DNA of 64,000 bases from a virus (lineage: Duplodnaviria > Caudoviricetes): IMG/VR virus record IMGVR_UViG_3300032234_000388, positions 96,001 through 160,000 of that record. One strand, given 5' to 3'. Under the pieces are notes generated by a model, which was not told where the DNA came from, ran no database searches, and saw nothing but the letters and a program-made list of their open reading frames with translations. Below are positions 1 to 27,367 of this stretch, piece after piece (the stretch's first letter is position 1; each line of letters starts with the position of its first letter). The translations under genes and the position numbers were made by a program.

Positions 1-207
1 GAATATGCGCCTACTGAAAAAATTTTTCCCGAACCAGGAAAGTTAGTTATTTTTCCTAGCTGGATGTTTCACTACGCTGCTCCTCATGTAGACAACTTTG
101 ATCGATATATTATTAGTTTTAATTCCCTACCTTCTGGGTCTATAAACTATAATATAGCAACTGATTCTGTATCAGATATTTCAATAAATTCTAGAGAAAA
201 AATATAA
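1..207 (+). CDS. Partial (3' end) Fe(II)/2OG oxygenase, TIGR02466-like
   Basis: Hand translation of frame 1 gives ..PEPGKLVIFPSWMFHYAAPH..RYIISFN..; stop TAA overlaps the next ATG (TAATG at 205-209). Confidence 0.7.
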   Translation, partial: EYAPTEKIFPEPGKLVIFPSWMFHYAAPHVDNFDRYIISFNSLPSGSINYNIATDSVSDISINSREKI

Positions 208-1703
208 TGGTAAACTCAATATGTATAGTTGGGGGAGGCAACTCAGGATTAATGACTGCCCTTTGGTTAAAAAAACTATTTCCCTACATGTCTGTCTCAC
301 TGATAAAATCTAAAAACATCGGAACTATCGGAGTTGGTGAAGGAAGCACAGAACACTGGACTGTGTTTTCACAAACTGTAGGAATTAATATTTCTGAGCT
401 GATAAACGAATGCGGAGCCACTATCAAGGTTGGAATTAAATTTGAAAACTGGCACGGAGATAATACAAGTTATTTTCACAGTGTTCCTGAATTTCTAGCA
501 ACCATGGACCCGATGACTGGCGCCGCTACTAGTATGATGAGGCTAATAGGAGACAATATTAGTAGTGAAAAATTAGTCTGGGAGTTGCCTATGCAAGGAT
601 ACGTAAAACATCCTCTCAGTAATTATTATCAGTTTCACTTTGATAGTGAAAAATTAAATGCGTTCTTAGAAAAAAAATGTATAGCAGACGGTGTATCAGT
701 AATAGATACTGAAATTACAGATGTAAAATTAGATCAAAACGGATTTATTGATTCTATTATTGATAATCAAACTCGATCTTATTCAGCAGATCTCTTTATC
801 GACAGCAGCGGATTTAAAAGAGTGCTGTCATCTAAGCTAGGTGCTGAATGGGTTGATTGGTCTAAGTATCTACCTATGAACAGTGCTATTGCGTTCCAGA
901 CTCCATACGAAGAACAACTTCCACCATATACTCTTGCACGAGCAATGAATAGCGGCTGGAACTGGAGAAGCCCGGTACAAGAACGATTTGGTAATGGGTA
1001 TGTTTTTAGCGATCACTTTATTAACGAAACTCAAGCATTAGACGAAATACAAAAATATTTTAAAGAGCCAATTAATATTGGTCGAAAAATAAACTTTGTA
1101 TCTGGAAAAGTCAATAAGGCATGGATCAAGAATTGTATATCAATTGGTCTTAGTAGTAATTTTGTTGAGCCGTTAGAAGCCAGCAGCATTGCTACTACAG
1201 TAAAGCAACTACAGATGTTATTGGGTACAATATGGAATTGGTCTAAGAGCGATACCGGTACTGTTAAAAGATACAATATGTTATTTGATGACATGATGAC
1301 AAACGTTTTAGATTTTATACAATTGCATTATTTTACACAACGCAACGACACTGAGTTTTGGCGGTGGTGTAAAAATGAAATTACTATGACTGACTTTAAT
1401 AAAGAAAACTTAGAAGTATTTAAAACTAACTTTGTTAATCAAATGCTTTTACCAGAAGATGGCATTACAGGTAATTTTAGAATCTATGATTGCTTAAATT
1501 GGATACAAGTCATGCATGGATTAAGAATGTTTGATACTGCTAAAATTAAAGAAATTTATGACAAACATTTTAGTCATCTTAGACAAATAGACGAACAATA
1601 TGCGTCTCAGGCAGATCAAGAGTTGACAGATCAATGGGTAACTTGTAGAGACGCAATTAACTTTGTTAAGAGCTTCAATACTCGGGTAGAATATAAATTA
1701 TGA
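207..1703 (+). CDS. Flavin-dependent tryptophan-halogenase-like protein 1 (PrnA/RebH family)
   Basis: GGGNSG FAD motif, GVGEGS, ATIKVGIKF (catalytic Lys position), GWNWRSP, FVEPLEASS. Confidence 0.9.
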   Translation: MVNSICIVGGGNSGLMTALWLKKLFPYMSVSLIKSKNIGTIGVGEGSTEHWTVFSQTVGINISELINECGATIKVGIKFENWHGDNTSYFHSVPEFLATMDPMTGAATSMMRLIGDNISSEKLVWELPMQGYVKHPLSNYYQFHFDSEKLNAFLEKKCIADGVSVIDTEITDVKLDQNGFIDSIIDNQTRSYSADLFIDSSGFKRVLSSKLGAEWVDWSKYLPMNSAIAFQTPYEEQLPPYTLARAMNSGWNWRSPVQERFGNGYVFSDHFINETQALDEIQKYFKEPINIGRKINFVSGKVNKAWIKNCISIGLSSNFVEPLEASSIATTVKQLQMLLGTIWNWSKSDTGTVKRYNMLFDDMMTNVLDFIQLHYFTQRNDTEFWRWCKNEITMTDFNKENLEVFKTNFVNQMLLPEDGITGNFRIYDCLNWIQVMHGLRMFDTAKIKEIYDKHFSHLRQIDEQYASQADQELTDQWVTCRDAINFVKSFNTRVEYKL

Positions 1704-3205
1704 TAACCTCAATATGTATAGTTGGCGGTGGCACTAGCGGGTGTGTTGCTGCTCTAATGATTAAAGAAGCCTATCCTAATATGAATATAACTCTAATAGA
1801 GTCTAGTCAAATTGGTATTATTGGGGTAGGCGAAGGCAGCACAGAGCATTGGAAAAAATTTATAGAACATGTTGGAATTACTGTTCCAGAATTAGTTAGA
1901 GAAGCTGGTGCAACATTTAAAGTAGGAATTAAATTTACCAATTGGCACGGCGACGGCACACACTATTTTCACAGTCTTAGTGAGCAGTACGGAAGTCACT
2001 CTGTAAAATCAGGATTGCCAACTACATGGATGCGAATGATTGCAGAAAATTGGGACCCGTTAAACACTGCATGGGGTCTATCAATAAACAGCCGTCATGT
2101 GGAGCCTTTACATAACATATTAGCTCAATATCACTTTGACACATTTAAACTTAATGAATTTTTACATAAGAAATGTCGTGAAAGAAATATATCTATAATC
2201 GATACTGAGATAGTAGATGTTAAATTAGACGATCAAGGCAATGTTTTAGATTTGATTGATGTAGAATTAAAATCCCATAAACATGATTTTTATATTGACT
2301 GTAGCGGATTTAAAAGAATAATTGGAAGTAAGCTAGGCGCAGAGTGGATTGATTGTCAACATCATTTGCCTATGAATTCTGCATTGGCATTTCCAACTGA
2401 ATACACTGAAGAAATTCCGTCCTATACAGAAGCCACCGCATTAAGTAGCGGGTGGGCGTGGCGTATTCCTACTCAAGAACGCTATGGCAACGGGTATGTA
2501 TTTTGCGACAACTTTATTGACGAAACCAAAGCCTACGACGAAGTACAAAAACATTATAAAGAAGTTTTAAAGATTGAAAAGCCAATAGAGATTGGAAGAA
2601 AAATTAAATTTGGTGCCGGGTATGTTAAAGAATTTTGGTTGAAAAACTGTGTAATGGTTGGCCTAAGCGGAATATTTGTTGAGCCGCTGGAGGCTAGTAG
2701 TATAGGAACTACTATTCAACAGTGTTTTAGATTGCTGCCAAGTTTGGCATTTTATAATAAAAACGAAACTATTACTTCATCAAAGTATAATCGAGATATG
2801 AAAATAGTCAGCGAAAATATTGTAGATTTTATACAACTTCATTATATAACACAACGTCAAGACAGTAAATTCTGGCAGTGGTGTAAAAATGAACTAACTT
2901 TAACAGACTTTAACAATCAGTATCTTGATACATTTAAAGAAAGTTTTCCAAATATTCATTATTTTAATCACCCGTTGCAATTATTTTCTTATTTAAACTT
3001 TACCCAAGTTATGCACGGCCTCCGTCTTTTTAATATTGAAAAAATTAAAAAAATATACGATACACATTTTAGTCACTATACTGACGCTTCAGATAGACTT
3101 ATAAAAGAAAACAACGAATACTGCACTCAACTGCAGACCTATAGTCACAGAGAAGCGTTGAATATGCTAAAGGAACGCGGCCTTGAAGTCAAATACCATT
3201 TCTAA
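1700..3205 (+). CDS. Tryptophan-halogenase-like protein 2
   Basis: GGGTSG, ATFKVGIKFTNW, GWAWRIP, FVEPLEASS; closest paralogue of protein 1. Confidence 0.9.
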   Translation: MITSICIVGGGTSGCVAALMIKEAYPNMNITLIESSQIGIIGVGEGSTEHWKKFIEHVGITVPELVREAGATFKVGIKFTNWHGDGTHYFHSLSEQYGSHSVKSGLPTTWMRMIAENWDPLNTAWGLSINSRHVEPLHNILAQYHFDTFKLNEFLHKKCRERNISIIDTEIVDVKLDDQGNVLDLIDVELKSHKHDFYIDCSGFKRIIGSKLGAEWIDCQHHLPMNSALAFPTEYTEEIPSYTEATALSSGWAWRIPTQERYGNGYVFCDNFIDETKAYDEVQKHYKEVLKIEKPIEIGRKIKFGAGYVKEFWLKNCVMVGLSGIFVEPLEASSIGTTIQQCFRLLPSLAFYNKNETITSSKYNRDMKIVSENIVDFIQLHYITQRQDSKFWQWCKNELTLTDFNNQYLDTFKESFPNIHYFNHPLQLFSYLNFTQVMHGLRLFNIEKIKKIYDTHFSHYTDASDRLIKENNEYCTQLQTYSHREALNMLKERGLEVKYHF

Positions 3206-4694
3206 AATAGTTATAATCGGAGGAGGAAGTGCAGGTTGGATGACTGCAGCCACTCTAATTTCTTCTTTCCCTGACAAAAATATAACGCTTATTGAAGCTC
3301 CTAATATTCCAATTATAGGAGTTGGCGAAAGTACTACAAATTATATGAGAGAGTGGACCAGCTCTATAGGCCTAAAAGACGAAGACTGGATGCCAGAATG
3401 CGATGCAACGTATAAATTTGGTCTAAAGTTTGTAGACTTTGCAGAAGATGAATTTTATTACCCATTTGGTCAACGGGCCGAATCTACGTGTAATCTAGCA
3501 CACTGGTTTACATATGCCGAGGCAAATAAAATTTCAAACGGCGATTTTGGAAAAGTCTTTTACGATCAACTTCCGGCTATGGAACAGAATCGAATTCCCA
3601 ACAACTTTATTGAGAACGAATCAGGATACCATTTCGATGCTGTTAAGTTTGCAACTTTTCTTAAAGAAAAGTTTGCCAAGCCCAAAGGTGTTATTCATAA
3701 ACAACAAAAAGTCATAGATGTTGTACAGGATGACACTGGAATAAAATCAATAAAATTAGATAGTGGAGAAACTGTAGATGCAGATATCTATTTTGACTGC
3801 ACTGGGTTTTTGGGATTGCTAATCGATAAAACTCTTAAAACTCCGTGGATTAGTTTTCAAGACAAACTTTGTAATAATCGAACTTGGGCTGCAAGAATAC
3901 CATATTCAAACAAAGAAGAACAATTAAAGCCCTACACTACATGCACTGCACTAAGTAGCGGTTGGGTGTGGAATGTTCCGTTATGGAACAGAATCGGAAC
4001 AGGTTATAACTATTGCGATAAATTTATATCTCCAAAGGATGCATTATTAGAATTTAAAACTCACCTAGGAACAATTAGTGAAAATATAGAATTTAGAGAT
4101 ATTAGTTGGCCTACTGGTGTTAGAGAAAAAGTATGGAATAAAAATGTTGTTGCTATTGGCCTAAGTGGTGGGTTTATTGAACCGCTAGAATCTGGCGGAC
4201 TGTATAGTGTACACGAATTTTTAAATGCTTTTTTAGATGTAACAGAAGGGCATAATCGTTGGGACGGTGTTGCCAGAGATAGCTTTAATTGGAAGTGTCG
4301 AGATATTTTTACAAAATTTGCAGACTTTGTAGAATTACATTATACAATGTCTAGAAGAGATGATTCCAACTATTGGAAATGGTACACAAGTAAAGAAAAC
4401 GTTATTGATAATAATTCTATATTAAAACAATTGTTTGATTATCAACATCATAGTCCGTATAGTGTATCAGAATTAAACAACATGTGGTTTGGGTTATCGA
4501 TGTTAGTTGGCGGTTATAAGTATTCTCTTAGAAATCAAAGAAAATTAAAATACTTCACTGAAAAATTTTCAGAATTTAAATTAGCTGATGACATAATAGC
4601 TCGGATACAAACTAGATTAAAAAATTCAGATTTACCCCAAACGCACTATTTGAAAAATATTGATTTTTATGAACATACCTTATACAAAAAATAA
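3183..4694 (+). CDS. Tryptophan-halogenase-like protein 3
   Basis: GGGSAG, ATYKFGLKF, GWVWNVP, FIEPLESGG. Confidence 0.9.
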   Translation: MKSNTISKIVIIGGGSAGWMTAATLISSFPDKNITLIEAPNIPIIGVGESTTNYMREWTSSIGLKDEDWMPECDATYKFGLKFVDFAEDEFYYPFGQRAESTCNLAHWFTYAEANKISNGDFGKVFYDQLPAMEQNRIPNNFIENESGYHFDAVKFATFLKEKFAKPKGVIHKQQKVIDVVQDDTGIKSIKLDSGETVDADIYFDCTGFLGLLIDKTLKTPWISFQDKLCNNRTWAARIPYSNKEEQLKPYTTCTALSSGWVWNVPLWNRIGTGYNYCDKFISPKDALLEFKTHLGTISENIEFRDISWPTGVREKVWNKNVVAIGLSGGFIEPLESGGLYSVHEFLNAFLDVTEGHNRWDGVARDSFNWKCRDIFTKFADFVELHYTMSRRDDSNYWKWYTSKENVIDNNSILKQLFDYQHHSPYSVSELNNMWFGLSMLVGGYKYSLRNQRKLKYFTEKFSEFKLADDIIARIQTRLKNSDLPQTHYLKNIDFYEHTLYKK

Positions 4695-6216
4695 ATTGGT
4701 TATTGTTGGAGGGGGTAGTGCAGGATGGATGACTGCCTTATATCTAAAGAAACTGCACCCAACATGCGAAATATCAGTCGTAGAAGACCCTGATCGTCCA
4801 CCAATTATTGCTGGCGAAAGTGGTACAATAACCTTTGTTTCTTTTCTTAAAAGTTTGGGAATAGGAATCGACGACTTTGTTCGGCATACCAATGCTACTC
4901 CAAAATTAGGAGGTCGATTTAAAAATTGGAACGGAGTTGGACACGAATTTATTCACGCACTTCAAACAGATATTACTCCATGGCTTGATGAAGTTGACAA
5001 TGACCTAACATCTTTTAGTCAAACAATCGCTGGATTGAATAGAGAACACACGTCTGACAATTATGTTTCAACAATAATAGCCAACGACATACCGTTATCA
5101 AAAGCATTTTATGCTTATCAATTTATTGATCAAAATAAAGTTCCGTTTGGAGGAGACGCTGATTCGTTATCTATTGCTCCAATGTGGCACTTTGAAAGCA
5201 GGGCTGCTGCTGCGTATTTAAAAAATATAGGAATATCTAGAAATATAAAACTAATAGAAGGCAAATACAAATTTTCTAATCAATCGACCTCAGGCGATAT
5301 TTTATCTGTAGTATTAGAAGATGACACAATTGTTGCAGGCGACTGGTTTTTTGACTGCTCTGGATTTGCACGATTATTGCTAGGCGGTGTTTTAAACGAA
5401 CCGTTAATTGACTACTCCAATTTTTTTCCTGCTAGGGCTGTGGTTGCCTGGTGGGACAAAGCTGAACCTTCAGTAACTTCAAATGCTAATGCTATGGAAT
5501 ATGGGTGGTCTTGGAATATAAATCTTAGACATCGATCTGGCAACGGATACATTTACGATCCCGACCACATCAACTTGGACCAAGCTGTGTTAGAAGCAGA
5601 AAAATTTTATGGATATAAAATTGATCCTATTGCTAATTTTAGTTTTACACCGGGTATTATGAAAAATACTTGGAAAAACAATGTTATTGCTGTCGGGTTG
5701 AGCGGTGGTTTTTTAGAACCATTAGAGGCCAATGGGGTGCAAGTTATCATTGATACACTATGGGCAATAGAAGATTTATGGAAGCCAACCATTCAATCTA
5801 ATTTTAAACAACGTCAGGATCTTTTTAATCTACGAGTATTTGCAAATACCGAGGATATACGAGATTTTATATCATTGCATTATAGAGGAAAGCGCAGAGA
5901 TACAGAGTTTTGGAAAAGTCATGCTTATGATAAATTTAGAATACCAACATCACTCAATGACAAACTAGACCAATGGGGCAAGTACTATGCTGGAGAAGCA
6001 TGGGCATTTCCAAGATCAAACGGGTATTCACCAACTGCATGGTTAATGGTTTTGCAAGCACTTGATATATTTGATACTGCTCCGTTAAAGGCTCGCAAAT
6101 CTCAATTGCTAGCTATCGGAAAAACAGCACTAAATAACAACTATAACAGATACAGAGATTATGCTAACTCTTGTTTAACCATAGAAGACTGGTTAAAAAA
6201 CAGCATAAATACATAA
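4660..6216 (+). CDS. Tryptophan-halogenase-like protein 4 (start possibly ATG 4669)
   Basis: GGGSAG, ATPKLGGRF, GWSWNIN, FLEPLEANG. Confidence 0.88.
   Translation: MIFMNIPYTKNKLVIVGGGSAGWMTALYLKKLHPTCEISVVEDPDRPPIIAGESGTITFVSFLKSLGIGIDDFVRHTNATPKLGGRFKNWNGVGHEFIHALQTDITPWLDEVDNDLTSFSQTIAGLNREHTSDNYVSTIIANDIPLSKAFYAYQFIDQNKVPFGGDADSLSIAPMWHFESRAAAAYLKNIGISRNIKLIEGKYKFSNQSTSGDILSVVLEDDTIVAGDWFFDCSGFARLLLGGVLNEPLIDYSNFFPARAVVAWWDKAEPSVTSNANAMEYGWSWNINLRHRSGNGYIYDPDHINLDQAVLEAEKFYGYKIDPIANFSFTPGIMKNTWKNNVIAVGLSGGFLEPLEANGVQVIIDTLWAIEDLWKPTIQSNFKQRQDLFNLRVFANTEDIRDFISLHYRGKRRDTEFWKSHAYDKFRIPTSLNDKLDQWGKYYAGEAWAFPRSNGYSPTAWLMVLQALDIFDTAPLKARKSQLLAIGKTALNNNYNRYRDYANSCLTIEDWLKNSINT
6204..6211 (+). 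promoter_or_regulatory. T4-type late promoter CATAAATA
   Basis: Near match to T4 late consensus TATAAATA, followed by SD AAGGAG and ATG 6232. Confidence 0.65.
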
Positions 6217-6231
6217 TAAAGGAGTTTTATA

Positions 6232-6402
6232 ATGGCAACTTGGAAAATGATTTTACGCAAAGCTGAACCACCCGGAACTTTAGCTGTTGAGGCTGATTTT
6301 TGCGAAGCAGAAAAAAAGGAAGAAGCGGCTAAAATTTTTGAAGAAAGACACGGTGTTGGACGAGTAGTAGCAGGTCCAATGTTAGTTGAGCAACCTAATT
6401 AA
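6232..6402 (+). CDS. Small 56-aa hypothetical late protein (absent from ORF track)
   Basis: MATWKMILRKAEPPGTLAVEADFCEAEKKEEAAKIFEERHGVGRVVAGPMLVEQPN; strong SD and late box; fills the gap between convergent operons. Confidence 0.75.
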   Translation: MATWKMILRKAEPPGTLAVEADFCEAEKKEEAAKIFEERHGVGRVVAGPMLVEQPN

Positions 6403-7037
6403 TTTTGATTGGAATTTTTTATTAACGATTCCATAGCAGCAATACGTTTTATTTCGCCCTGAACTTCAGGCCTAGCCCAGTCAAAACCTAGGCCTAGTTT
6501 TGGCTTAGAATCCCACTTTAACCAAGCATCAGGTCCGTTAGCATCCACATACTGTAAAAATGCTTGTATTTGTTTAGTTCCTTGAAACGGATCTCTCCAA
6601 TGCATATTCTTTCTGCCACTGTATATTACTAGATCTCCAACATTTAAAAAAATCTCGTGTATCTGTTTATCAGTACCTTGAATTTTTAAAGGCCAATTTG
6701 TATCGTCGTGTGTTATGCACACCGAAATTGTAATTTCACTACTGGGCCTGTCAACGTGTTTTTGTAATTCTGATCCGGTATAGTAAATTCGAGCAAACGA
6801 ATAAGACGGCCACAATTTCATTCCAACTGCTTCTTCAACTAATGGCAATAGTTTAACGCTTAGGGCTTCGAACATCAGAGGCGCATAGCGGGCAAAACTG
6901 TTTTTGCAAAAATCCGATAGGTCCGATTCTGGATATAGTGTTTTGCAAACATCTTCCATCATGTTAAATTCTAATGCTAGAAACTCACAAAGTTCTTGAG
7001 AAACTGCATTTCTAATAATTTTAAAATCTTCGTTCAT
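6399..7037 (-). CDS. Fe(II)/2OG oxygenase (prolyl-hydroxylase-like phage family)
   Basis: HVD...HWR facial triad; RIYxxGxxLxKH motif. Confidence 0.8.
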   Translation of the reverse strand: MNEDFKIIRNAVSQELCEFLALEFNMMEDVCKTLYPESDLSDFCKNSFARYAPLMFEALSVKLLPLVEEAVGMKLWPSYSFARIYYTGSELQKHVDRPSSEITISVCITHDDTNWPLKIQGTDKQIHEIFLNVGDLVIYSGRKNMHWRDPFQGTKQIQAFLQYVDANGPDAWLKWDSKPKLGLGFDWARPEVQGEIKRIAAMESLIKNSNQN

Positions 7038-7600
7038 AATAAGGGCATCAGTGATAAGTTAGCGAATGGGCGTTCTGTATATTCTAAAATTAATTTGTGT
7101 TCTGGAAGACAATGCACATCAAACCCAATTGTAGTTCTATATCCCTCAAACGGTTCTAAAACTTCAACTTTGTGTCGTCTATTTCCAGGACCAAAATAAA
7201 TTTGACCTGTTTTATTTTCTATACTGTAGTTGTCAAACACAGTGTTTGTCTTTTTTGAATCAATACAAATATACCCGTGATAGTCATATGTATGCGTATG
7301 CCAATCTAGCACGCTATCTGCAGTATGATAATTTAACCATGCTTCAAACCATAGAGGTCGAGTGTCACCAAGTTGATTTCTAATTACATTTCTCATTTCT
7401 TTATAAATTTCATAAAATGAAGAGCATGGCGCAGTTAGTGCAAAAATATTGTAGCGATCATACGACCAGGTTGAGTCGGCATTAGGAATTGATGCAAACA
7501 TTCGATTAAAAAGTCGATGTGCTTCGTTAATGTCCTCAAAAATTGTGTTTTGATTGTTAACAATATAATCCGATTGATGTAAAATATAATCCTTGGTCAT
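7034..7600 (-). CDS. Putative Fe(II)/2OG oxygenase
   Basis: AWLNY..WHTH...RHKV...RTTIGFD double-stranded beta-helix pattern. Confidence 0.65.
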   Translation of the reverse strand: MTKDYILHQSDYIVNNQNTIFEDINEAHRLFNRMFASIPNADSTWSYDRYNIFALTAPCSSFYEIYKEMRNVIRNQLGDTRPLWFEAWLNYHTADSVLDWHTHTYDYHGYICIDSKKTNTVFDNYSIENKTGQIYFGPGNRRHKVEVLEPFEGYRTTIGFDVHCLPEHKLILEYTERPFANLSLMPLL

Positions 7601-11407: not shown

Positions 11408-12210
11408 AAAAATAGATCCTTGAGCATCAGTGGGTTATTTTTTGGAGATAGGTGTGAAAATGCAAAAGCATGACTCCACCTAAAATCTACAGATGGAGAA
11501 ATATACGCACTATGGCACACATTTGATTTATACATAGTTATAGTTCCTTCAGTTGTGGGAGCATCTCCAACATGTTCAAATCCCCATCTTGTTAATTCTG
11601 CTTCTGTCATATTAAACCATTGAGATGATCTTGTAGGATTTTCAGCTATTGATTTCCATTCGTGATACATTTTATGATTTTCATCTACCTGAAAATCATA
11701 TATTTCATCTTTCATTACTCCGTTATATCTATATAGCTTAGTTGAGCTATCGGCGGTATCATGATTGGTAAACCACAAATTTGCAACCATTCCGTATGAA
11801 TAGTCAATATGTGGTATGCGCCAGCAAGAGATAGGCCTAGATCGATTTTTAAAATAAACGTTTCCCCATTCGTGTATTTCAGGATCCACAATTGGAAGAT
11901 TGACCTGTGTAAGATAAAATTCTTTTATTAAAAAACAAATATCTTTATAAATCCATTCTGGCAAATGTATTGTATCAAATGGATTAGGGTCAAAGTTTTC
12001 TAGATTGTTATTATCTTTTTGTATAGGAAAAGTAGAAACTAAGTTTCTAAAAAGATCAAATCCGTTATCATAAAATGGATTTTCAGCAATCCAGTACCCT
12101 ATGTCTTGATCAAGTTTAACGTATTCGAGTTTCCAATCCTCTAATTTTTTAATTTTTATAATTTTTTTAAAATTATTAGCGTCGGGGTAGCAGGTTTTAA
12201 AATCTATCAT
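11404..12210 (-). CDS. Putative Fe(II)/2OG oxygenase (DUF6445-like)
   Basis: IPHID..ANLW..T...MY...HSA..R. Confidence 0.6.
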   Translation of the reverse strand: MIDFKTCYPDANNFKKIIKIKKLEDWKLEYVKLDQDIGYWIAENPFYDNGFDLFRNLVSTFPIQKDNNNLENFDPNPFDTIHLPEWIYKDICFLIKEFYLTQVNLPIVDPEIHEWGNVYFKNRSRPISCWRIPHIDYSYGMVANLWFTNHDTADSSTKLYRYNGVMKDEIYDFQVDENHKMYHEWKSIAENPTRSSQWFNMTEAELTRWGFEHVGDAPTTEGTITMYKSNVCHSAYISPSVDFRWSHAFAFSHLSPKNNPLMLKDLFL

Positions 12211-12791
12211 TTTATATTAAATGTCATTACTATTCTTTCTTGATCGGTATGATTAATTTGAGTTCTGTGTCGAAGCCAACCTGGAAAAATTATTACATCA
12301 TTGGTATTACATTGTACTTCTTTGTAAAATGATAATTCTGGAATTACTGGAAAATTATGTTTGTGATATTCGAGAGGATCTTTAAACTCAATGTTTCCAG
12401 AATTAGGAGGACACTTAATATAACAACTTACTACAAACGTTGAATGACTATGTGAGTGTTCTAATGTTTCTCCAGATTCTAGATGACGATTAACCCACGA
12501 TTGATGTACTGTTGAATGATTATGAACAAAATCGTATTCTTTTCGAATACCGTTAATTTTTTCTCCTAACCAAAACTGAAAATCAGACAGCTCAACCCAT
12601 GTGTGTGGTTGAAATTTATCATCTAGTGATACTGTGGATATTGCATTTCCCTTCTCTAATAAAGAATTAGTTTTTACTAAATTTAAAATATTATTAATTT
12701 TTGGATATAATATATCCAAATCAAAATCGTAATTAAATTTCCATACTAGAGGAGGAAATAAAAATACCCCGCCATTACTCAGCTGTAACAC
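12207..12791 (-). CDS. TIGR02466-like Fe(II)/2OG oxygenase
   Basis: SWVN..HSH..GNIEFKDP..IFPGWLRH..RIVMTFN. Confidence 0.82.
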   Translation of the reverse strand: MLQLSNGGVFLFPPLVWKFNYDFDLDILYPKINNILNLVKTNSLLEKGNAISTVSLDDKFQPHTWVELSDFQFWLGEKINGIRKEYDFVHNHSTVHQSWVNRHLESGETLEHSHSHSTFVVSCYIKCPPNSGNIEFKDPLEYHKHNFPVIPELSFYKEVQCNTNDVIIFPGWLRHRTQINHTDQERIVMTFNIK

Positions 12792-13026
12792 CTATGTCGT
12801 CCTTAAATGTTTCTAAGGCTAGCGTTAATCCCATAATTGCCCCTTCCATTTTAACTACATCTTTGGCTAGTTCTTGTCTTTTGCTAAAGTCGATTGAAGT
12901 GATTCCGTATGGATTAAGTTTTACATTTGCAAATTCTTCTTCGAGTAGTTTAAGTTCGTTATTTGTTTTATCAAGTTCTTGTTGTACCTGTAGTATATTT
13001 TTTTGTAATTTTTCTGCGTAGTTCAT
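12775..13026 (-). CDS. Small coiled-coil hypothetical protein
   Basis: Overlaps both neighbours in the operon; heptad-like sequence; SD AGGAG. Confidence 0.7.
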   Translation of the reverse strand: MNYAEKLQKNILQVQQELDKTNNELKLLEEEFANVKLNPYGITSIDFSKRQELAKDVVKMEGAIMGLTLALETFKDDIGVTAE

Positions 13027-13826
13027 AATGCTCTCCTTTTAAACTTTTTTAAAATTTTACTAACTCTGTGCAATCTAGAAGACAGTGTGTCTTTTTCTAA
13101 AATTACACAATTGGCAGCATAATTATATGCTCGTTCTCGTTGCATATCTAATTCGTCAGCATTTTCGATTGTTATGTCGTACTCTGCAAGATTTAAATAT
13201 TTCCTAGGAATAGGAATAAGTTGGCACAGCGGTGTTCCTGCCTTTATCAATGTTGTACTGTTAAGATTTTTCCAAAACATTGGTACATTTAATGTGTGAG
13301 AAAAAATTGGATCTAGTATACCCGTAGCTGCAACAAATCGGTGCTCGTCGTTGTAGGCTACAGGCAATTGAAGAAACACTATATCGTTTGATGCATCGAC
13401 TCTCCACGGAGTTTCTACTTTAATTGTAGTGGCTAAAGTTGTAGTATTATCAATCAAAGGCAACGTCTGCTGAGAGGGGTGCGTAGCAATATAACTTTCA
13501 GTACCTGCTATTCCTTTATCAAAGACAATTGGTTCACGCCAGTTCATCGATATATTATCGCCATTAGTAGTTATTTCAAAATCTGCTGGTGCCGGAATAA
13601 TGAACCCTGTTGATACTAATTTTTTTAAACCAGGACAATTTGAAGTTGCTAACATATGATCCGGATATAGTTCTCTGTTTAAAAATTTTCTATCTAACAT
13701 TGAAGATTTTGTAATTGGAAAAAGATCTATAACACCCGGATATACTGAATAAAATCTAATATAAGATTTCTTTTTAGTTGTCCAACCAAACAGTTTTTTA
13801 CACAGCGTGGTCATCTTTTCCGCCAT
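13023..13826 (-). CDS. Hypothetical protein (CPG..GFIIP..GILD..AGTPL motifs; possibly dUTPase-like fold)
   Basis: Operon-coupled ORF; motif style seen in T4-like oxygenase islands; start possibly 13814. Confidence 0.6.
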   Translation of the reverse strand: MAEKMTTLCKKLFGWTTKKKSYIRFYSVYPGVIDLFPITKSSMLDRKFLNRELYPDHMLATSNCPGLKKLVSTGFIIPAPADFEITTNGDNISMNWREPIVFDKGIAGTESYIATHPSQQTLPLIDNTTTLATTIKVETPWRVDASNDIVFLQLPVAYNDEHRFVAATGILDPIFSHTLNVPMFWKNLNSTTLIKAGTPLCQLIPIPRKYLNLAEYDITIENADELDMQRERAYNYAANCVILEKDTLSSRLHRVSKILKKFKRRAL

Positions 13827-15408
13827 AAATGTTATCTTTTAAGAACTGATAATGGCTTGGCAATTGTTTTACATGATCAATAACAAAATTTTTATATTCT
13901 TCGTAGGCACGCTTAGTAAATCCCGTTTGTTGATCGTGTAATACATCTGGAATATTTCTAGAATATAAGAGTTCTTTAGTAGATATTGCTCGAACACCAA
14001 GGCCTGCCAAAATAAACATTTGACCGATGCCCTCATGCCAATAGCTTTGATTTAATAAAATATTGCCAACAGTATTAGGATATTGAGCTTGAACCATCAT
14101 ATGCGGGCCCATCATGTCGGGACTGTACTCGTTATATTGTGTACACCATCTCCAATATGGAGTGTCTGTTCTTCCCGAAAACGCATAGTGCATACTAACA
14201 AAATCTCTAAATCTGTCAACTTCTGTAGCTACTGCAAGATTAAATCCATCTTGTTCAATTCTAGTTACATACCCTTTTCTTCGATTAAGAGTTTCTACTA
14301 ATTTAATTATATTTTCGTGAGTTGTTAACAGGCCTGTTGATTCTAAAGGCTCAACAAACCCGTAGCTTAGACCAACACCTACTACGTTTTGATGCCACGC
14401 CCTACGACGTTTTCCGTGTTTAATTATAATATTAAACATTTCTGCATTTTCTGCAAGCTCCGGACTGTGCTTTTCAGCAATGTGTCTTCTAAATTCTCTT
14501 TTAGCATCTTCGTCTGTTACAAATCTACTAGAATACACATAGCCTGTACCAATCCTATTCCACAACGGAATATTCCATACCCAGCCGTTATCTAATGCAT
14601 GACAATCAGTTACGTTATGCATTTCTCGTTCTCTGTCAATATACGGCAATCGACATGCCCATGCTCTATCATTGGCTAAAACTTTACTAAACGGTTGAAA
14701 CTCTTGTCCCATCCATTGTTCTAATAGTTGTGATCTAAAACCAGTACAGTCGATCCAAAGGTCAGATTTTAAAACCTGTGTATCTTCTAACATCACGTGA
14801 GAAAGATTGCCAAGATCGTCTTTTTTATAAGAATGCACTTCGCCAATAATGTGTTTAACACCATTAGGCAATGCAATTTTTTCTTTTAAATATTGTCCAA
14901 ATAACTGCGCATCCATATGATATGCGGTGTCCCAGTCGAAGGAAAAGTTTCTTAATATACCGTTTTCATTTTTGCTCTGTTTATTGTACTTGGCCAGCAT
15001 TGTATTGCCTGTACAATAAAATTCAGCAAATGTTTCTGAGGTATATTCTTCTGGATATTCTGCAGCAAGTCGAGACCATGCTTGCTCGCCTGCCGGTTTA
15101 TCGGTTAGATCCAATCCTCCACTAAACGGATATTCAAAATGTGTTCCGTCTTTGGCTTTAAAATTTGTAAATCTGATAGAATTTTTATAGGTTGCATTAC
15201 ATGCGGCCATCCAATCTTCATCTTTTAAATCTAATAATTTTAAAAATTTGTTAATGTGACCTAGAGTGCTTTCTCCGACTCCGACAGTGCCAATTTTTTT
15301 AGATTCAACTAATGTTATTTCTAAATGAGGACATAGTTTGGCTAGTGCGGCTGCAGTCATCCATCCTGATGATCCACCACCCACTATAGTTACTGTTTTG
15401 TAATGCAT
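13798..15408 (-). CDS. Tryptophan-halogenase-like protein 5
   Basis: GGGSSG, ATYKNSIRF, GWVWNIP, canonical FVEPLESTG. Confidence 0.92.
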   Translation of the reverse strand: MHYKTVTIVGGGSSGWMTAAALAKLCPHLEITLVESKKIGTVGVGESTLGHINKFLKLLDLKDEDWMAACNATYKNSIRFTNFKAKDGTHFEYPFSGGLDLTDKPAGEQAWSRLAAEYPEEYTSETFAEFYCTGNTMLAKYNKQSKNENGILRNFSFDWDTAYHMDAQLFGQYLKEKIALPNGVKHIIGEVHSYKKDDLGNLSHVMLEDTQVLKSDLWIDCTGFRSQLLEQWMGQEFQPFSKVLANDRAWACRLPYIDREREMHNVTDCHALDNGWVWNIPLWNRIGTGYVYSSRFVTDEDAKREFRRHIAEKHSPELAENAEMFNIIIKHGKRRRAWHQNVVGVGLSYGFVEPLESTGLLTTHENIIKLVETLNRRKGYVTRIEQDGFNLAVATEVDRFRDFVSMHYAFSGRTDTPYWRWCTQYNEYSPDMMGPHMMVQAQYPNTVGNILLNQSYWHEGIGQMFILAGLGVRAISTKELLYSRNIPDVLHDQQTGFTKRAYEEYKNFVIDHVKQLPSHYQFLKDNIYGGKDDHAV

Positions 15409-15450
15409 GAAAAGTTCCTTATTATATAGTAATAAAATAAAACTACCAGA

Positions 15451-15457
15451 TATTTAG
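15451..15457 (-). promoter_or_regulatory. Late-promoter-like CTAAATA heading the halogenase/oxygenase operon
   Basis: TAAATA core about 40 nt upstream of ATG 15408, just downstream of a terminator. Confidence 0.55.
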
Positions 15458-15476
15458 CTACTGTTTTTAGAGAGGT

Positions 15477-15508
15477 AAAAAAAAGGTGCCTATAATAAAG
15501 CACCTTTT
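15477..15508 (-). terminator. Intrinsic terminator closing the fibre operon
   Basis: AAAAGGTGC...GCACCTTTT inverted repeat with an 8-U tail on the minus strand. Confidence 0.75.
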
Positions 15509-15528
15509 AAGTAGGTTTATTAGGTTAA

Positions 15529-16026
15529 TTAACTAATGCCATAACCTTTCCATCCTGGATATCTTTTCCAGGCAGGCATTTCTAAAGTTGCAGGTTGATT
15601 TCTCTTGTCCTTGCTAGGTTCTTCAGTCAATGACCTTGCTAACATTTCTTCCATTGTAACAGGAGCTTCAGGCGGAGGTGGTTTTGGTATTACTGATTTT
15701 ACTGTTTGGATATGATTATACCAATCTCCGTCTGCTGAAATACTTCCGCTAGTTGCTAACTCATGATACAACATATCTAATTGAGCGCCAACGTCGCCAT
15801 AGGCGACCTTACGTGCTACTGCTAGATCAGTAAAAGGAGCATCTCGTTCTATCCAAATCATTTTACCTTGGCTAGGACTCCATTCTAATGTCCAATCTAA
15901 CGTGATTTCGTCAGGAGCATCTACCCAAACTACTGTAGCGTCTGGGCCTTCATAAATTTCATAATCTAATCCGGGCTCAACTATTTGTTGTACCCAACCT
16001 TGATATACTACTAGTGCTTTTTTCAT
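15529..16026 (-). CDS. Hypothetical fibre-associated (assembly/chaperone-like) protein
   Basis: Follows the three Gly-rich fibre genes; contains R..AY....QLDMLYH motif typical of phage fibre-adjacent proteins. Confidence 0.5.
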   Translation of the reverse strand: MKKALVVYQGWVQQIVEPGLDYEIYEGPDATVVWVDAPDEITLDWTLEWSPSQGKMIWIERDAPFTDLAVARKVAYGDVGAQLDMLYHELATSGSISADGDWYNHIQTVKSVIPKPPPPEAPVTMEEMLARSLTEEPSKDKRNQPATLEMPAWKRYPGWKGYGIS

Positions 16027-16043
16027 AATGTTTTATTCCTAAT

Positions 16044-16898
16044 TTATCTATATTCTTCTACAACAATAATTCCGGGACGACCATCTGAACCTCGATGTCC
16101 ATGATAGTGACCTCCAGTGCCTCCAGATCCTGGAGCAGAATGTCCTTGATGATTGTGTGCAAAATTGCCACCTTGTGGATGACCTGATGGAGCGCCGCCG
16201 CCCCAATAACTTGACCCGCCTGGTCCAAAATTATCATGATGAGAACCACCACCGCCTTGGTGCATATTTAGATCTCCACCACTTCCGACACCACTAACAC
16301 CGCCACTATGCTGATTTTGTCTATTAGCTCCGTGGCCTGCACTGGCAGAACAGAATCCACCAAACGAGGTTGTGCCTGCATTGCCGCCAGCACCCGCATA
16401 CCAAGTACCTCCGCCTCCGCCGTCAATAGTAACACCTACTGAACTAGTACCTGTTACATCTATAATTCGTTCTGCATATCCACCGGCAGCACCTGACTCG
16501 CCGTGACCACTTGCGCCACCGCCTGAGCCCTGAACTTTTACTCGAATAAATCTAACTCCTGCTGGACGATTCCATGTGCCGCTACTGGTAAACACTTGCA
16601 TGCCGCTAAAACCAGTGACTGCATACTCAAACGCATTTCCAGAGGAATTAACTCGAAGCACAGTGTTTGCTGAGCCTACAGAAGATAATCCAGTACCGCC
16701 TTTGGCAATAGGCATTACTCCAGTGACTGTAGATTGTGAAAAATCTACAGAGTTGTTTGCAAGTTTTGCAGAAGTAATTGCTCCGCTTGCTAAGTCGCTA
16801 GTAGGAATTGATCTATTAGCAATATCAGCATCCGGTATGCTAACGTCAATAATAGCTTGTCCGGTTAAATTTCGTAATGTTTGATAATCAAATGGCAT
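16044..16898 (-). CDS. Gly/His-rich fibre or adhesin-like protein, paralogue C
   Basis: ITxxKLA repeats, P..KGGTG, VFTSSGTW..P.GV..I.V...GGG Gly-rich domain ending GxxGxPGIIVVEEY. Confidence 0.75.
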   Translation of the reverse strand: MPFDYQTLRNLTGQAIIDVSIPDADIANRSIPTSDLASGAITSAKLANNSVDFSQSTVTGVMPIAKGGTGLSSVGSANTVLRVNSSGNAFEYAVTGFSGMQVFTSSGTWNRPAGVRFIRVKVQGSGGGASGHGESGAAGGYAERIIDVTGTSSVGVTIDGGGGGTWYAGAGGNAGTTSFGGFCSASAGHGANRQNQHSGGVSGVGSGGDLNMHQGGGGSHHDNFGPGGSSYWGGGAPSGHPQGGNFAHNHQGHSAPGSGGTGGHYHGHRGSDGRPGIIVVEEYR

Positions 16899-16910
16899 AT
16901 TTTTCCTAGA

Positions 16911-17768
16911 TTAAAAGAATTCTGTAATAACAATTAAGCCGGGTCTACCGTCTGAGCCTCTATGACCGCTAAAATATCCTGCAGATCCACCTGTGCCGGG
17001 CGCAGAGTGCCCTTGATGATTGTGTGTAAAATTTCCACCTTGTGGGTGTCCGCTTGGGGCTGGCCCGCCCCAAAAACTCTTTCCGCCCATGCCGCTTGAA
17101 CGCTGTTCGTGTCCGCCACCGGCGCCACCGTATAAATTTAAGTCTCCGCCGGATCCAATTCCTGGTAATCCGCCGTTATGATTATTATGTCTATTAGCTC
17201 CATGACCTGCAGTTGCTGAAACAAATCCGCCAAATGATGTTGTGCCAGCATTGCCTCCAGCATTGTTGTACCAAGTACCACCACCACCACCGTCAATAGT
17301 AACACCCACAGTAGTGATTGATGTTGCATCAATTAGTCTTTCGGCATATCCGCCGGCAGCACCTGACTCACCGTGGCCACTTGCTCCGCCGCCTGAGCCT
17401 TGAACTTGTACCCAAATAAATCTAACTCCGGATGTTTTAGTATATGTTCCAGAACCAGTAAACACTACCATTCTAAAAATTCCTGTAGGTGCAAATTCTA
17501 ATGCAGTATTTGCAGAATTTGCTGCTAGTACTCGAAATGCTGATCCTACAGCACTTGCTCCAGTACCTCCTCTAGAAAACGGTGTTGCTCCGGTGACTGT
17601 GACCGAGGCAACATCAATAGCTCCTGCACCTATTTCTGATGCTGTAATTGTAGTATTGGCTATTTTTGTGTCTGTTACTGCGCTATTATTTAAATCGGCA
17701 CCAGTAAGCGTGCCTGGAAGAATTGCAGCGTCTGTTATATTTTTTAATGTTTGATAATTAAATGGCAT
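16911..17768 (-). CDS. Gly/His-rich fibre or adhesin-like protein, paralogue B
   Basis: Same architecture; MPFNYQ start. Confidence 0.75.
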   Translation of the reverse strand: MPFNYQTLKNITDAAILPGTLTGADLNNSAVTDTKIANTTITASEIGAGAIDVASVTVTGATPFSRGGTGASAVGSAFRVLAANSANTALEFAPTGIFRMVVFTGSGTYTKTSGVRFIWVQVQGSGGGASGHGESGAAGGYAERLIDATSITTVGVTIDGGGGGTWYNNAGGNAGTTSFGGFVSATAGHGANRHNNHNGGLPGIGSGGDLNLYGGAGGGHEQRSSGMGGKSFWGGPAPSGHPQGGNFTHNHQGHSAPGTGGSAGYFSGHRGSDGRPGLIVITEFF

Positions 17769-17776
17769 AGTTATTC

Positions 17777-18628
17777 TTAGAAATAGTTAGTTACAACAAC
17801 AATGCCCGGACGACCGTCAGATCCGCGGTGCCCGTGAAAGTGTGCTCCAGCTCCGCCCGTCCCTGGCGAGGTATGACTTTGATGATTGTGTGCAAAATTG
17901 CCGCCCTGAGGATGGCTGCTAGGTGCGCCTCCGCCAAAGAATGTATCTGCACAACTTTGTGCGCTTCGGGCATGGTGACTAAATCCGCTACCTTGGTGCA
18001 TGTTTAAATTTCCGCCGCTGCCAACGCCACTAACTCCGCCCGAGTGTTGATTTTGTCTATTGGCTCCGTGGCCGCCGCTAGCTGATAAGAAAGAACCAAA
18101 ACTACAACCACCAGCATTGCCGCCCGCATTAGCATAAAATGTTCCACCACCGCCACCGTCAATGGTTATACCTACCGAGCTAATTCCAGTTACGTCAAGA
18201 TACCGTTCGCAGTATCCGCCAGCAGCTCCACCTTCTCCGTGGCCGCTGCCGCCTCCTCCTGATCCCTGTAATTGAACTTTAATGTATCTAACTCCTGCTG
18301 GTCGATTCCATGTTGACGACCCAGTAAATACTTGAATACTAGCAATCCCGTGATTACTAGCAACAGGGTTAGTTCCGTCACTGTAAAACGCTCTAAATGC
18401 TCCAGGTAATGATGTGGTTCCTAGTCCGCCTTTGTTTACAGGCAAAGTTCCAGTAACAACTGTTGTAGTAGTATTAACTGCGCTGGTAGCTAATTTTGAA
18501 GAATCAATAGCACCAAGGGCTATTTTTCCTGCAGTAATTGACGTATTAGCTAAATCTGCGGTGTCAATAGAACCATCAATAAACGATGCTCCTGTTAAAT
18601 TCCGTAGACTCTGATAATTAAACGGCAT
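17777..18628 (-). CDS. Gly/His-rich fibre or adhesin-like protein, paralogue A
   Basis: Same architecture; MPFNYQ start. Confidence 0.75.
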   Translation of the reverse strand: MPFNYQSLRNLTGASFIDGSIDTADLANTSITAGKIALGAIDSSKLATSAVNTTTTVVTGTLPVNKGGLGTTSLPGAFRAFYSDGTNPVASNHGIASIQVFTGSSTWNRPAGVRYIKVQLQGSGGGGSGHGEGGAAGGYCERYLDVTGISSVGITIDGGGGGTFYANAGGNAGGCSFGSFLSASGGHGANRQNQHSGGVSGVGSGGNLNMHQGSGFSHHARSAQSCADTFFGGGAPSSHPQGGNFAHNHQSHTSPGTGGAGAHFHGHRGSDGRPGIVVVTNYF

Positions 18629-19096: not shown

Positions 19097-19107
19097 AATA
19101 TTATTCC

Positions 19108-27322: not shown

Positions 27323-27367
27323 TTTCCACTCCAAAATTTATATAGCACGTATATTTATGCATTATTG

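Follow-up and report, generated by a model that had tools for sequence, protein, structure and literature searches.

This report concerns a dense array of genes for flavin-dependent halogenases and Fe(II)/2-oxoglutarate (2OG) oxygenases that adjoins fibre genes in an uncultured virus. The window, that is, the whole stretch of DNA analysed here, comprises the 64,000 nucleotides (nt) from base 96001 to 160000 of the 198.7-kb IMG/VR virus record IMGVR_UViG_3300032234_000388, whose completeness is estimated at 56%; positions are those of the window unless given as genome coordinates. Profile matches identify T4-type gp15, tail sheath, portal, major head protein and baseplate hub in the record, and among cultured phages the genes studied have their nearest relatives in the cyanomyoviruses S-CREM1, Syn9 and Syn10, which together mark the source, as judged from its genes, as a large uncultured T4-like cyanophage. 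The array appears to be part of a conserved functional unit of T4-like cyanomyoviruses that would be transcribed with the late (virion) genes, and its enzymes may tailor phage proteins.

The initial annotation had listed five FAD halogenase-like genes, and all five stand: each is intact, matches PF04820 at 287 to 373 bits against a cut-off of 21 and keeps the motifs, and the 198.7-kb record holds no other PF04820 gene. Lengths are in amino acids (aa).

207–1703, plus strand: halA, flavin-dependent halogenase, 498 aa (PF04820, 347 bits; GxGxxG, catalytic Lys, WxW and FxEPxE kept)
1700–3205, plus strand: halB, flavin-dependent halogenase, 501 aa (PF04820, 345 bits; motifs kept)
3183–4694, plus strand: halC, flavin-dependent halogenase of the Syn9 gp41 type, 503 aa (PF04820, 344.5 bits)
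4660–6216, plus strand: halD, flavin-dependent halogenase, 518 aa (PF04820, 287 bits; motifs kept, with WSWNIN replacing WxWxIP)
13798–15408, minus strand: VirX1 orthologue, 536 aa, first gene of the minus-strand enzyme operon (PF04820, 372.5 bits)

Aligned in all five are the flavin-binding GxGxxG, the catalytic Lys (K79 of PrnA and VirX1), WxW and the Glu of FxEPxE. The VirX1 orthologue and halB (WAWRIP) match the longer WxWxIP exactly, whereas its last residues vary in halA (WNWRSP), halC (WVWNVP) and halD. Pairwise identity among the five is 26 to 34%, except for halA and halB (51%), and they appear to be old paralogues. halC shares 42 to 45% identity with the halogenases at the gp41 position of Syn9, S-RIM44, P-TIM40, S-B64 and Sf-CH11. 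The gene at 13798–15408 is the orthologue of the characterised viral iodinase VirX1: it matches the VirX1 structure (PDB 6qgm) over residues 4 to 530 at E 8.6e-201, is 56% identical to the Syn9/Syn10 gene and lies after gp40 and before gp43, which is the position of Syn9 gp42 and of the Syn10 gene. Its alignments to PrnA, RebH, PyrH and Thal end at about residue 420 to 436 of 536; in these free-tryptophan enzymes, a C-terminal module binds the amino-acid part.

Similarly, the earlier count of about 11 Fe/2OG oxygenases in the window is borne out by ten full minus-strand genes (6399–12791) and the end of an eleventh (1–207, plus strand), with a further complete gene just before the window bringing the cassette to 12; support is uneven from gene to gene.

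Genome 95012–95590, plus strand: ox_up1, oxygenase, first gene of the plus operon (PF13640 over cut-off; HxD/E..H..R conserved)
Genome 95590–96207, plus strand, starting 410 nt before the window, with its last 68 residues at window 1–207: ox_up2, oxygenase, 205 aa, second gene of the plus operon (PF13759, 30.2 bits against a cut-off of 27)
6399–7037, minus strand: ox1, oxygenase, 212 aa, last gene of the minus operon (weak AlkB-type PF13532 match, E 0.0018; H94-x-D96..H146..R148 conserved; orthologue at the same position in relatives)
7034–7600, minus strand: ox2, oxygenase of the PF13759 type, 188 aa (phrog_2696; hhalign 95% to ox8; HxH..H..R conserved)
7597–8205, minus strand: ox3, oxygenase, 202 aa (PF13759 at 26.6 bits, 0.4 below cut-off, and PF13640 at 22.8 bits, below cut-off; H111-x-D113..H179..R190; hhalign 100% to ox6)
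8205–8825, minus strand: ox4, oxygenase-like protein of family DUF6445, 206 aa (PF20043, 56.9 bits; paralogue of ox5, hhalign 100%)
8822–9529, minus strand: ox5, oxygenase-like protein of family DUF6445, 235 aa (PF20043, 63.2 bits; H121-x-D123..H211..R225 conserved)
9522–10157, minus strand: ox6, oxygenase with a prolyl-4-hydroxylase-type domain, 211 aa (PF13640, 28.4 bits against a cut-off of 27; H132-x-D134..H187..R198 conserved)
10093–10812, minus strand: JmjC oxygenase with a NO66/MINA53/YcfD-type catalytic domain, 239 aa, orthologue of Syn9 gp49 (PF08007, 63.4 bits against a cut-off of 22; H136-x-D138..H200 conserved)
10775–11407, minus strand: ox8, oxygenase, 210 aa (PF13759, 77.4 bits; match to PDB 3bvc and 2rg4, E 2e-10; H105-x-H107..H174..R185 conserved)
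11404–12210, minus strand: ox9, probable oxygenase, 268 aa, 'Gp46 family' (phrog_1644; atlas leads to DUF6445/PF13640 clusters at 0.94–0.95; H134-x-D136..H233..R244 conserved)
12207–12791, minus strand: ox10, oxygenase, 194 aa (PF13759, 53.3 bits; H112-x-H114..H175..R186 conserved)

Eight of the twelve exceed a Pfam cut-off (PF13759, PF13640, PF20043 or PF08007), with ox3 just below; those inside the window are the genes at 8205–8825, 8822–9529, 9522–10157, 10093–10812, 10775–11407 and 12207–12791 and the fragment at 1–207. Weakest are the assignments of ox1 and ox9, which combine weak leads with a conserved HxD..H..R; ox9 had no match in Pfam or the PDB. In the alignments, HxD/E..H..R is conserved in ox1, ox3, ox5, ox6, ox9, the JmjC protein and ox_up1, and ox4 shows no clear pattern. 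The PF13759-type members (ox_up2, ox2, ox8 and ox10) conserve HxH..H..R instead of the classical HxD/E..H, which may reflect a three-His iron site or a misplaced motif; the sole solved relatives of this type, 3bvc and 2rg4, have no assigned function. We also considered whether a halogenase of the 2OG type (HxG/A) might hide among the oxygenases and dropped the idea, as no conserved HxG/A triad stands out.

With regard to what these enzymes resemble, hhalign separates the twelve into at least five profile-distinct groups, and each of them, like each of the five halogenases, has an orthologue that relatives retain. Prolyl-hydroxylase-type PF13640 matches occur in three members, two of them over the cut-off. 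Among solved chains, the JmjC member comes nearest to NO66 (E 2.6e-9) and MINA53, both protein histidine hydroxylases, in line with the earlier statement that some JmjC enzymes act on peptides or proteins. Only residues 105 to 203 align, to about 128–233 of chains of 440 to 490 aa, so that the dimerisation and winged-helix domains of the ribosomal oxygenases are absent from the phage protein. YcfD, the bacterial ribosomal oxygenase, is an Arg hydroxylase.

Upstream of the minus-strand enzyme operon lie three Gly/His-rich genes, which the initial annotation had taken for fibre paralogues; they span 16044–18628, are 62 to 64% identical to each other and all carry an HNHQ(G/S)H motif.

16044–16898, minus strand: Gly/His-rich fibre-tip paralogue 1, 284 aa (phrog_863, E 2.5e-54; AlphaFold2 model with a mean predicted local distance difference test score (pLDDT) of 77, mostly above 80 from about residue 70)
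16911–17768, minus strand: Gly/His-rich fibre-tip paralogue 2, 285 aa (phrog_863, E 1.8e-48; 62% identity to paralogue 1)
17777–18628, minus strand: Gly/His-rich fibre-tip paralogue 3, 283 aa (PF21722, 32.2 bits against a cut-off of 24.3; phrog_863)

One paralogue exceeds the PF21722 cut-off and another falls below it; the phrog_863 matches range from E 1e-42 to 1e-54. A PDB search with the Gly-rich sequence profile returned nothing, and the structural match comes from the fold search alone: using the model of paralogue 1, Foldseek found the Pam3 fibre (7ypx, E 6e-8), the Bxb1 tail tip (9d93, E 4e-7) and the ALK glycine-rich domain. Because the modelled fold matches solved virion proteins of Pam3 and Bxb1, the Gly-rich proteins are very probably virion fibre-tip proteins rather than assembly factors. 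Across 147 homologues, seven His, two Tyr, one Trp, two to three Asn and one Pro are conserved. RefSeq labels these proteins 'tail fiber assembly' in Syn9, S-RIM44, P-TIM40, P-RSM6 and S-WAM1, which the fold does not support; labels given to members of the oxygenase array in the same five phages ('DNA endonuclease V', 'ferrochelatase', 'minor coat protein') are likewise not supported by profiles or motifs.

Four further proteins belong to the cassette.

15529–16026, minus strand: gp40-like protein, Trp-rich, 165 aa (phrog_1787; 'Gp40 family' in the atlas, with weak chaperone leads)
13023–13826, minus strand: gp43-like protein with a dUTPase/dCTP-deaminase-like beta-barrel, 267 aa (AlphaFold2 pLDDT 88; Foldseek to dUTPases, E 4e-5 to 1e-3, 8 to 17% identity)
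12775–13026, minus strand: gp44-like small protein, 83 aa (conserved core KLNPYG.T.IDF..RQ; present at this position in most loci)
6232–6402, plus strand: conserved 56-aa gene closing the plus operon and absent from the open reading frame (ORF) list (ribosome-binding site; follows halD in more than 40 loci at 35 to 79% identity by tblastn)

The gp40-like gene stands directly upstream of a halogenase in every locus. Its product begins with a folded N-terminal part, continues through a Pro-rich linker and ends in a conserved tail, ..PAW.RYPGWKGY, whose P151 and W153 are invariant; Trp averages 4.2%, and six Trp are conserved, four of them invariantly. The protein may serve as a fibre chaperone, or it could be a halogenase substrate built like the precursors of ribosomally synthesized and post-translationally modified peptides (RiPPs), in which a recognition domain is followed by a C-terminal core; the tail is also a candidate docking motif. 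The initial annotation did not include this protein, which may be a better halogenase target than the fibre paralogues. A complex prediction for the VirX1 orthologue with the gp40-like protein scored 0.00; its controls were not run, and it counts as evidence neither way. The gp43-like protein has a Cys64 that is invariant across 28 homologues, and a PDB sequence search with its profile gave nothing significant. Its dUTPase fold was first noted by Iyer et al. in 2010 (PMC2938197), and a confident model together with the fold search now confirms, at the level of prediction, that the fold is dUTPase-like. No significant family match was obtained for the gp44-like protein. The 56-aa protein follows the pattern M..YK.I.R...A...A...VAGP, in which residue 4 is Tyr in relatives and Trp here. 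It is speculative to regard the gp40-like, gp44-like and 56-aa proteins as candidate precursor peptides.

Using the Gly-rich paralogues as bait, we recovered 75 loci from IMG/VR and mapped all window proteins onto them. Every bait locus with enough downstream sequence shows the same one-strand order: two small fibre-type genes, two to four Gly-rich genes, a gp40-like gene, one or two halogenases, a gp43-like gene, in most cases a gp44-like gene, and then oxygenases in fixed order. The order persists while VirX1 identity drops from 86% to 44% and that of gp43 to 31%. Nine cultured phages keep it as well, among them Syn9, S-CREM1, S-RIM44 and P-TIM40 with the full form and P-RSM6, S-WAM1 and S-SZBM1 with a reduced one, where a different small gene replaces gp43 and only three to seven oxygenases follow; for Syn10, the positions of tblastn matches indicate the same arrangement. 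What lies downstream varies, namely the gp13–gp15 neck genes in S-RIM44, small genes and a helicase in Syn9, and a convergent operon and a giant fibre gene here. Thus, the unit appears to move as a block, intact while its surroundings differ, and the genomic linkage to fibre genes is real and deep in both the bait loci and the cultured phages. By contrast, distant singleton halogenases in S-B64 (38% identity with the VirX1 query) and S-MbCM6 (33%) lie amid replication, recombination or photosynthesis genes with no array adjoining. The initial annotation had suggested that enzyme copy number might co-vary with the fibre family: presence and absence agree well, and there is no clear dose relation among nine related isolates (0 to 3 Gly-rich genes, 3 to 12 oxygenases).

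The convergent plus operon (two oxygenases, halA, halB, halD and the 56-aa gene) is itself conserved in about 50 IMG/VR loci, where three halogenases are the usual complement and a second gp43 paralogue is often present; tblastn did not find the latter in this record. In Syn9, S-RIM44 and P-TIM40, the gp41-type halogenase lies between gp40 and VirX1, and in most relatives it either holds that place or is absent. Here, its counterpart halC sits inside the plus operon between halB and halD, where most close IMG/VR relatives have only halA, halB and halD.

A second line of evidence comes from promoter-like sequences. The claim that the minus operon follows a terminator and a TAAATA box shared with structural genes was accurate, and the two elements are located as follows.

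15481–15508, minus strand: intrinsic terminator hairpin and T-run after the gp40-like gene (11-bp stem, -14 kcal/mol, z -3.83)
15451–15458, minus strand: late-promoter-like box GCTAAATA, 50 nt before the ATG of the VirX1-type gene

The identical 8-mer GCTAAATA is found 39 nt before the tail-sheath gene, and boxes of this type also precede the baseplate-hub genes. Within 100 nt upstream of 215 ORFs, N[AC]TAAATA occurs 35 times in sense orientation, compared with 12 times in antisense and 11.5 +/- 3.2 times in composition shuffles. This pattern fits the published cyanophage late consensus NATAAATA (PMC2984593), except that some boxes have C at the second position. Stronger evidence comes from relatives: of 40 distinct sequences upstream of the VirX1-type gene, 26 carry a box at a distance of 27 to 50 nt, in many cases the canonical TATAAATA at -33 to -35; a box precedes the gp40-like gene in 35 of 49 and the first plus-operon gene in 6 of 13 upstream sequences, as against none of 109 upstream sequences of internal operon genes. 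In its TATAAATA-like sequence, its distance from the gene, its conservation and its sharing with structural genes, the box resembles a T4-type late promoter and can be regarded as a putative one on sequence grounds. Hence, of the earlier description of the cassette as 'late-expressed', the part that holds is the conservation of late-type boxes at operon starts only; the timing is deduced from the promoter motifs alone and would be late if these act as they do in T4-like phages.

In the plus operon of this record, TATAAATA occupies genome 95000–95007 and ends 4 nt before the ATG. Boxes of the TATAAATA type ending 4 to 5 nt before the start codon (motif at -12/-13) are seen at about nine other genes of the record. 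Such close spacing suggests leaderless late mRNAs or mis-called starts.

Outside the cassette proper, fibre-type genes flank it on both sides.

Genome 87337–94179, minus strand: giant fibre-type protein, 2280 aa, flanking the cassette (faint PF00502 phycobilisome-protein match, E 0.0078)
19451–27334, minus strand: giant fibre-type protein, 2627 aa, flanking the cassette on the other side
18638–19428, minus strand: two small proteins of fibre type, 152 and 106 aa, separating the Gly-rich genes from the 2627-aa fibre (PHROG tail-fibre/tail-protein matches; position kept in relatives)

Two more PF13759-like oxygenase genes were detected by tblastn away from the cassette, at 36189–36638 (minus strand) and, beyond the window, at about genome 36.9–37.35 kb (plus strand); one of the two is surrounded by structural genes within the window. 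P-RSM6 carries an annotated 2OG-Fe(II) oxygenase (3942–4685 of the piece examined) between a virion structural gene and the Gly-rich genes, upstream of the main array. A megablast search of the cassette region against the phage collection gave zero matches. Part of the window stretch was found in two DNA metagenome runs only, both from a single study, and no RNA runs were listed.

What might such a unit do? It comprises giant fibre genes, two to four Gly/His-rich tips, a Trp-rich gp40-like gene and then an enzyme operon with one or two halogenases (VirX1 type, with or without the gp41 type), a dUTPase-fold protein, a gp44-like protein and 4 to 11 Fe(II)/2OG oxygenases including one JmjC member. 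Here and in many uncultured relatives, a second, convergent operon adds two oxygenases, three or four more halogenases and the 56-aa protein. The enzymes would act on ribosomally made phage proteins that this gene block yields at the same time. Hydroxylation by the oxygenases would fall on side chains like those of His, Pro, Asn or Asp, and the halogenases would act on Trp or Tyr with host-supplied FADH2 and seawater halide. The likeliest substrates would be the gp40-like protein, with its invariant Trp and flexible C-terminal tail, and the Gly/His-rich fibre-tip proteins, and the outcome would be a chemically tailored receptor-binding apparatus.

Several observations favour the view that the enzymes tailor phage proteins: the fibre linkage that persists as the unit relocates, the late boxes, the lack of a scaffold synthase, the relatives of the JmjC and PF13640 members, the active site and grouping of VirX1, and the diversity of the enzymes. 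The initial annotation had noted that the window encodes no nonribosomal peptide synthetase (NRPS), polyketide synthase (PKS) or flavin reductase, and this extends to the whole record: a profile search of it, at its completeness of about 56%, found no match to PF01613 (flavin reductase), PF00668 and PF00501 (NRPS C and A domains) or PF00109 (PKS KS domain). PF01613 and PF00668 are absent from the complete Syn9 genome as well. VirX1 has a large, open active site and prefers iodide (PMC8407142). It falls outside the free-tryptophan halogenase group and clusters with the MibH-type indole (peptide) halogenases (PMC8269204). Moreover, many different, individually conserved enzymes are a better fit to many distinct sites than to one small product.

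A number of points weigh against this view. Nothing shows a modification of any kind, so that the hydroxylated or halogenated fibre residues of the initial annotation find no backing, and a literature search on hydroxylation of phage tail fibres returned no report. Trp positions are not invariant among the three Gly-rich paralogues. The substrates demonstrated for VirX1 in vitro are small aromatics (PMC8407142). Tips rich in Gly and HxH are ordinary fibre architecture for which tailoring is not required. We know of no halogenase or oxygenase arrays adjacent to the fibre genes of Pam3 and Bxb1, and the occurrence of the Gly-rich fold in their virions therefore indicates that the fold needs no tailoring. 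In T4 gp37, HxH motifs of the trimeric fibre bind iron/metal ions without modification, and a 'metal-binding tip' built by tailoring, as initially imagined, is thus unnecessary. There are also partial exceptions to the linkage: S-B64 has a distant Gly-rich protein behind a fibre gene and one oxygenase nearby without a halogenase, and Sf-CH11 has a gp41-type halogenase and three to four oxygenases amid structural genes without a Gly-rich protein. Because the loci and isolates are mutually related, their concordance cannot be read as that many separate events; T4-like genomes are generally syntenic, which tempers the fibre linkage further, and the fibre region is a known, hypervariable hot-spot for accessory genes in cyanomyoviruses (PMC3037559). 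Finally, a metabolite set free at lysis would be just as compatible with late timing.

Weighing both sides, we retain the tailoring of phage proteins as a tentative reading in which our confidence falls a little short of even; it is the missing modified residue, the small-molecule substrates of VirX1, the apparently enzyme-free occurrence of the fold, the exceptions, the hot-spot and the timing that keep it there. That the substrate is protein rather than a small molecule, and which protein it would be, are conclusions drawn from this indirect evidence. The narrower proposal that cyanomyoviruses of this lineage tailor their own receptor-binding apparatus, with up to 17 late enzymes acting on gp40-like proteins, Gly/His-rich tips or both by means of seawater iodide or bromide, is somewhat unlikely. 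That the Gly/His-rich paralogues in particular are the target is quite doubtful. The overall interpretation put forward initially is partly supported: the fibre link, the late boxes, the fibre fold, the lack of a scaffold synthase and the nearest relatives of the JmjC member and of VirX1 speak for it, the modification stays hypothetical, the novelty was overstated and the 'metal tip' is unnecessary.

The strongest rival, a serious contender if also on the unlikely side, is a line for secondary metabolites, in which a free amino acid or small peptide (e.g., tryptophan or indole) is converted to halogenated, poly-hydroxylated molecules such as an antibiotic, a siderophore-like compound or a signal at lysis, the proximity of fibre genes being mere architecture. 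Published work reads the Syn9 cluster, and comparable neighbourhoods in bacteria, in this way (PMC2938197; also PMC2984593, PMC7824862, PMC9964418). All characterised PDB relatives of the five halogenases use small-molecule or carrier-free substrates, VirX1 itself halogenates many small aromatics in vitro (PMC8407142), and the PF13759 and DUF6445 oxygenases have no known protein substrate. However, a scaffold-building enzyme, a carrier protein and a flavin reductase are all missing, from the complete Syn9 genome too, no exporter was seen among the family matches run, and it would be unusual for seventeen tailoring enzymes to have no core enzyme. Nor would a metabolite predict the late boxes or a fibre-tip linkage that is strict and survives relocation, and VirX1 falls outside the free-tryptophan group (PMC8269204).

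Alternatively, the enzymes could be directed late in infection at the host, modifying ribosomal or other proteins or envelope components so as to tune translation, aid lysis or block superinfection. The ribosomal-oxygenase type of the JmjC member (NO66, MINA53) would suit such a role, as would the detection of a 2OG oxygenase in purified S-SCSM2R virions, which would allow for delivery to the host (PMC12801897), and capsule decoration has been considered for another cyanophage halogenase cluster (Iyer et al. 2021, PMC7824862). Yet the JmjC protein, at 239 versus about 440 to 490 aa, is devoid of the additional domains of ribosomal oxygenases, the late boxes argue against a role in early host take-over, and the fixed position behind fibre-tip genes is left unexplained; we consider this explanation improbable.

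Less probable still is a metabolic or repair function, with oxygenases that drain or sense 2OG (nitrogen signalling) or repair alkylated DNA or RNA and with halogenases as passengers. While proposals of either kind exist for the 2OG oxygenases of cyanophages at large (PMC3037559), the AlkB-type match that would speak for repair (PF13532, E 0.0018) is single and weak, a 2OG sink needs no twelve distinct conserved enzymes kept in fixed order with halogenases and a dUTPase-fold protein, and late boxes are unsuited to replication-phase repair. The idea that the genes have no joint function and merely accumulated at a hot-spot draws on the hypervariability of the fibre region in cyanomyoviruses (PMC3037559) and on the variation in oxygenase number from 3 to 12 between lineages, and it can hardly be credited given the same orthologues, in the same order and with overlapping start and stop codons, across loci diverged to 31 to 47% identity.

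The role of the cyanophage 'prnA' halogenases and of the many 2OG oxygenases has been a question since the first genomes (2005–2010), and proposals for them also include antibiotic protection, DNA repair and 2OG manipulation (PMC3037559, PMC2984593, PMC9964418); two further sources, PMC7238727 and PMC5082946, do not mention the cassette genes. VirX1 is the only characterised viral halogenase, and its natural substrate is not known. Placing VirX1-clade enzymes in a fixed unit that would be driven by late promoters, travels with fibre-tip genes and has no scaffold synthase narrows the question. Should the tailoring of phage proteins prove true, it would be the first case in which a virion protein is halogenated, would add a level at which host range is determined and would give a biocatalyst family natural protein substrates.

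Comparison with known systems puts these features into perspective. VirX1 was reportedly described by Gkotsi and colleagues in 2019 as a flavin-dependent halogenase of cyanophage Syn10. The window orthologue shares with that enzyme (PDB 6QGM) the full length, GxGxxG, the catalytic Lys, WxWxIP and FxEPLES. SrpI is another peptide-acting flavin-dependent halogenase of RiPP pathways, alongside MibH. The grouping of VirX1 with MibH (PMC8269204) is matched here by a Trp-bearing C-terminal tail encoded directly upstream, that of the gp40-like protein; RiPP pathways differ in that no lanthipeptide or cyanobactin machinery, leader peptidase or exporter was recognised here. With the ribosomal oxygenases NO66 and MINA53, which are protein histidine hydroxylases, the window JmjC protein shares the JmjC_2 catalytic domain and the HxD..H triad; unlike them, it is a catalytic domain only (239 aa versus about 440 to 490 aa) and its gene belongs to a block of phage fibre genes. 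For the Gly/His-rich paralogues, the fold predicted is akin to that of the Pam3 fibre (7YPX), the tail tip of Bxb1 (9D93) and the ALK/LTK glycine-rich domain (E 6e-8 to 1e-6, template modelling score 0.4 to 0.55, 20 to 23% identity), and compared with these Gly-rich (polyglycine-II/TNF-like) domains, the window proteins carry extra conserved His motifs.

A parallel is also offered by the bacterial dioxygenase/sulfotransferase operons described by Iyer, Abhiman, de Souza and Aravind in 2010, in which tail-collar and collagen-like proteins are the predicted substrates (PMC2938197). As in the window, several hydroxylases are co-encoded there with a Gly-rich or fibre-type protein; the enzyme families are different, there is no sulfotransferase here, and in the portion of that paper available to us, the prediction is not extended to the cyanophage cluster.

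The closest known system is the dioxygenase/halogenase neighbourhood gp38–gp54 of Syn9, which the same paper called 'remarkable' and for which it proposed halogenated, hydroxylated secondary metabolites (PMC2938197). The cassette is therefore not the fresh find that the initial annotation took it for, its minus-strand part being the cluster published in 2010. Gene-by-gene orthology across gp38–gp54, the dUTPase fold, the invariant C64 and the T4-type structural genes are all found in this record. Shared with Syn9 are the Gly-rich gp38/gp39, gp40, the gp41-type and gp42 (VirX1-type) halogenases, the dUTPase-fold gp43 with its conserved Cys, gp44, and a tandem run of about ten dioxygenases, one of them a JmjC protein of the MINA/NO66 type. 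To judge by this correspondence, the cassette is an enlarged form of the Syn9 neighbourhood. What has been added is a convergent operon with two more oxygenases, the 56-aa gene and four halogenases, one of them the relocated gp41-type gene and three further ones, for a total of 5 halogenases and 12 oxygenases. While the 2010 account, so far as it was available to us, deals with the enzymes only (PMC2938197), what is new here for a cassette known since then is its quantified link to fibre-tip genes and to putative late promoters.

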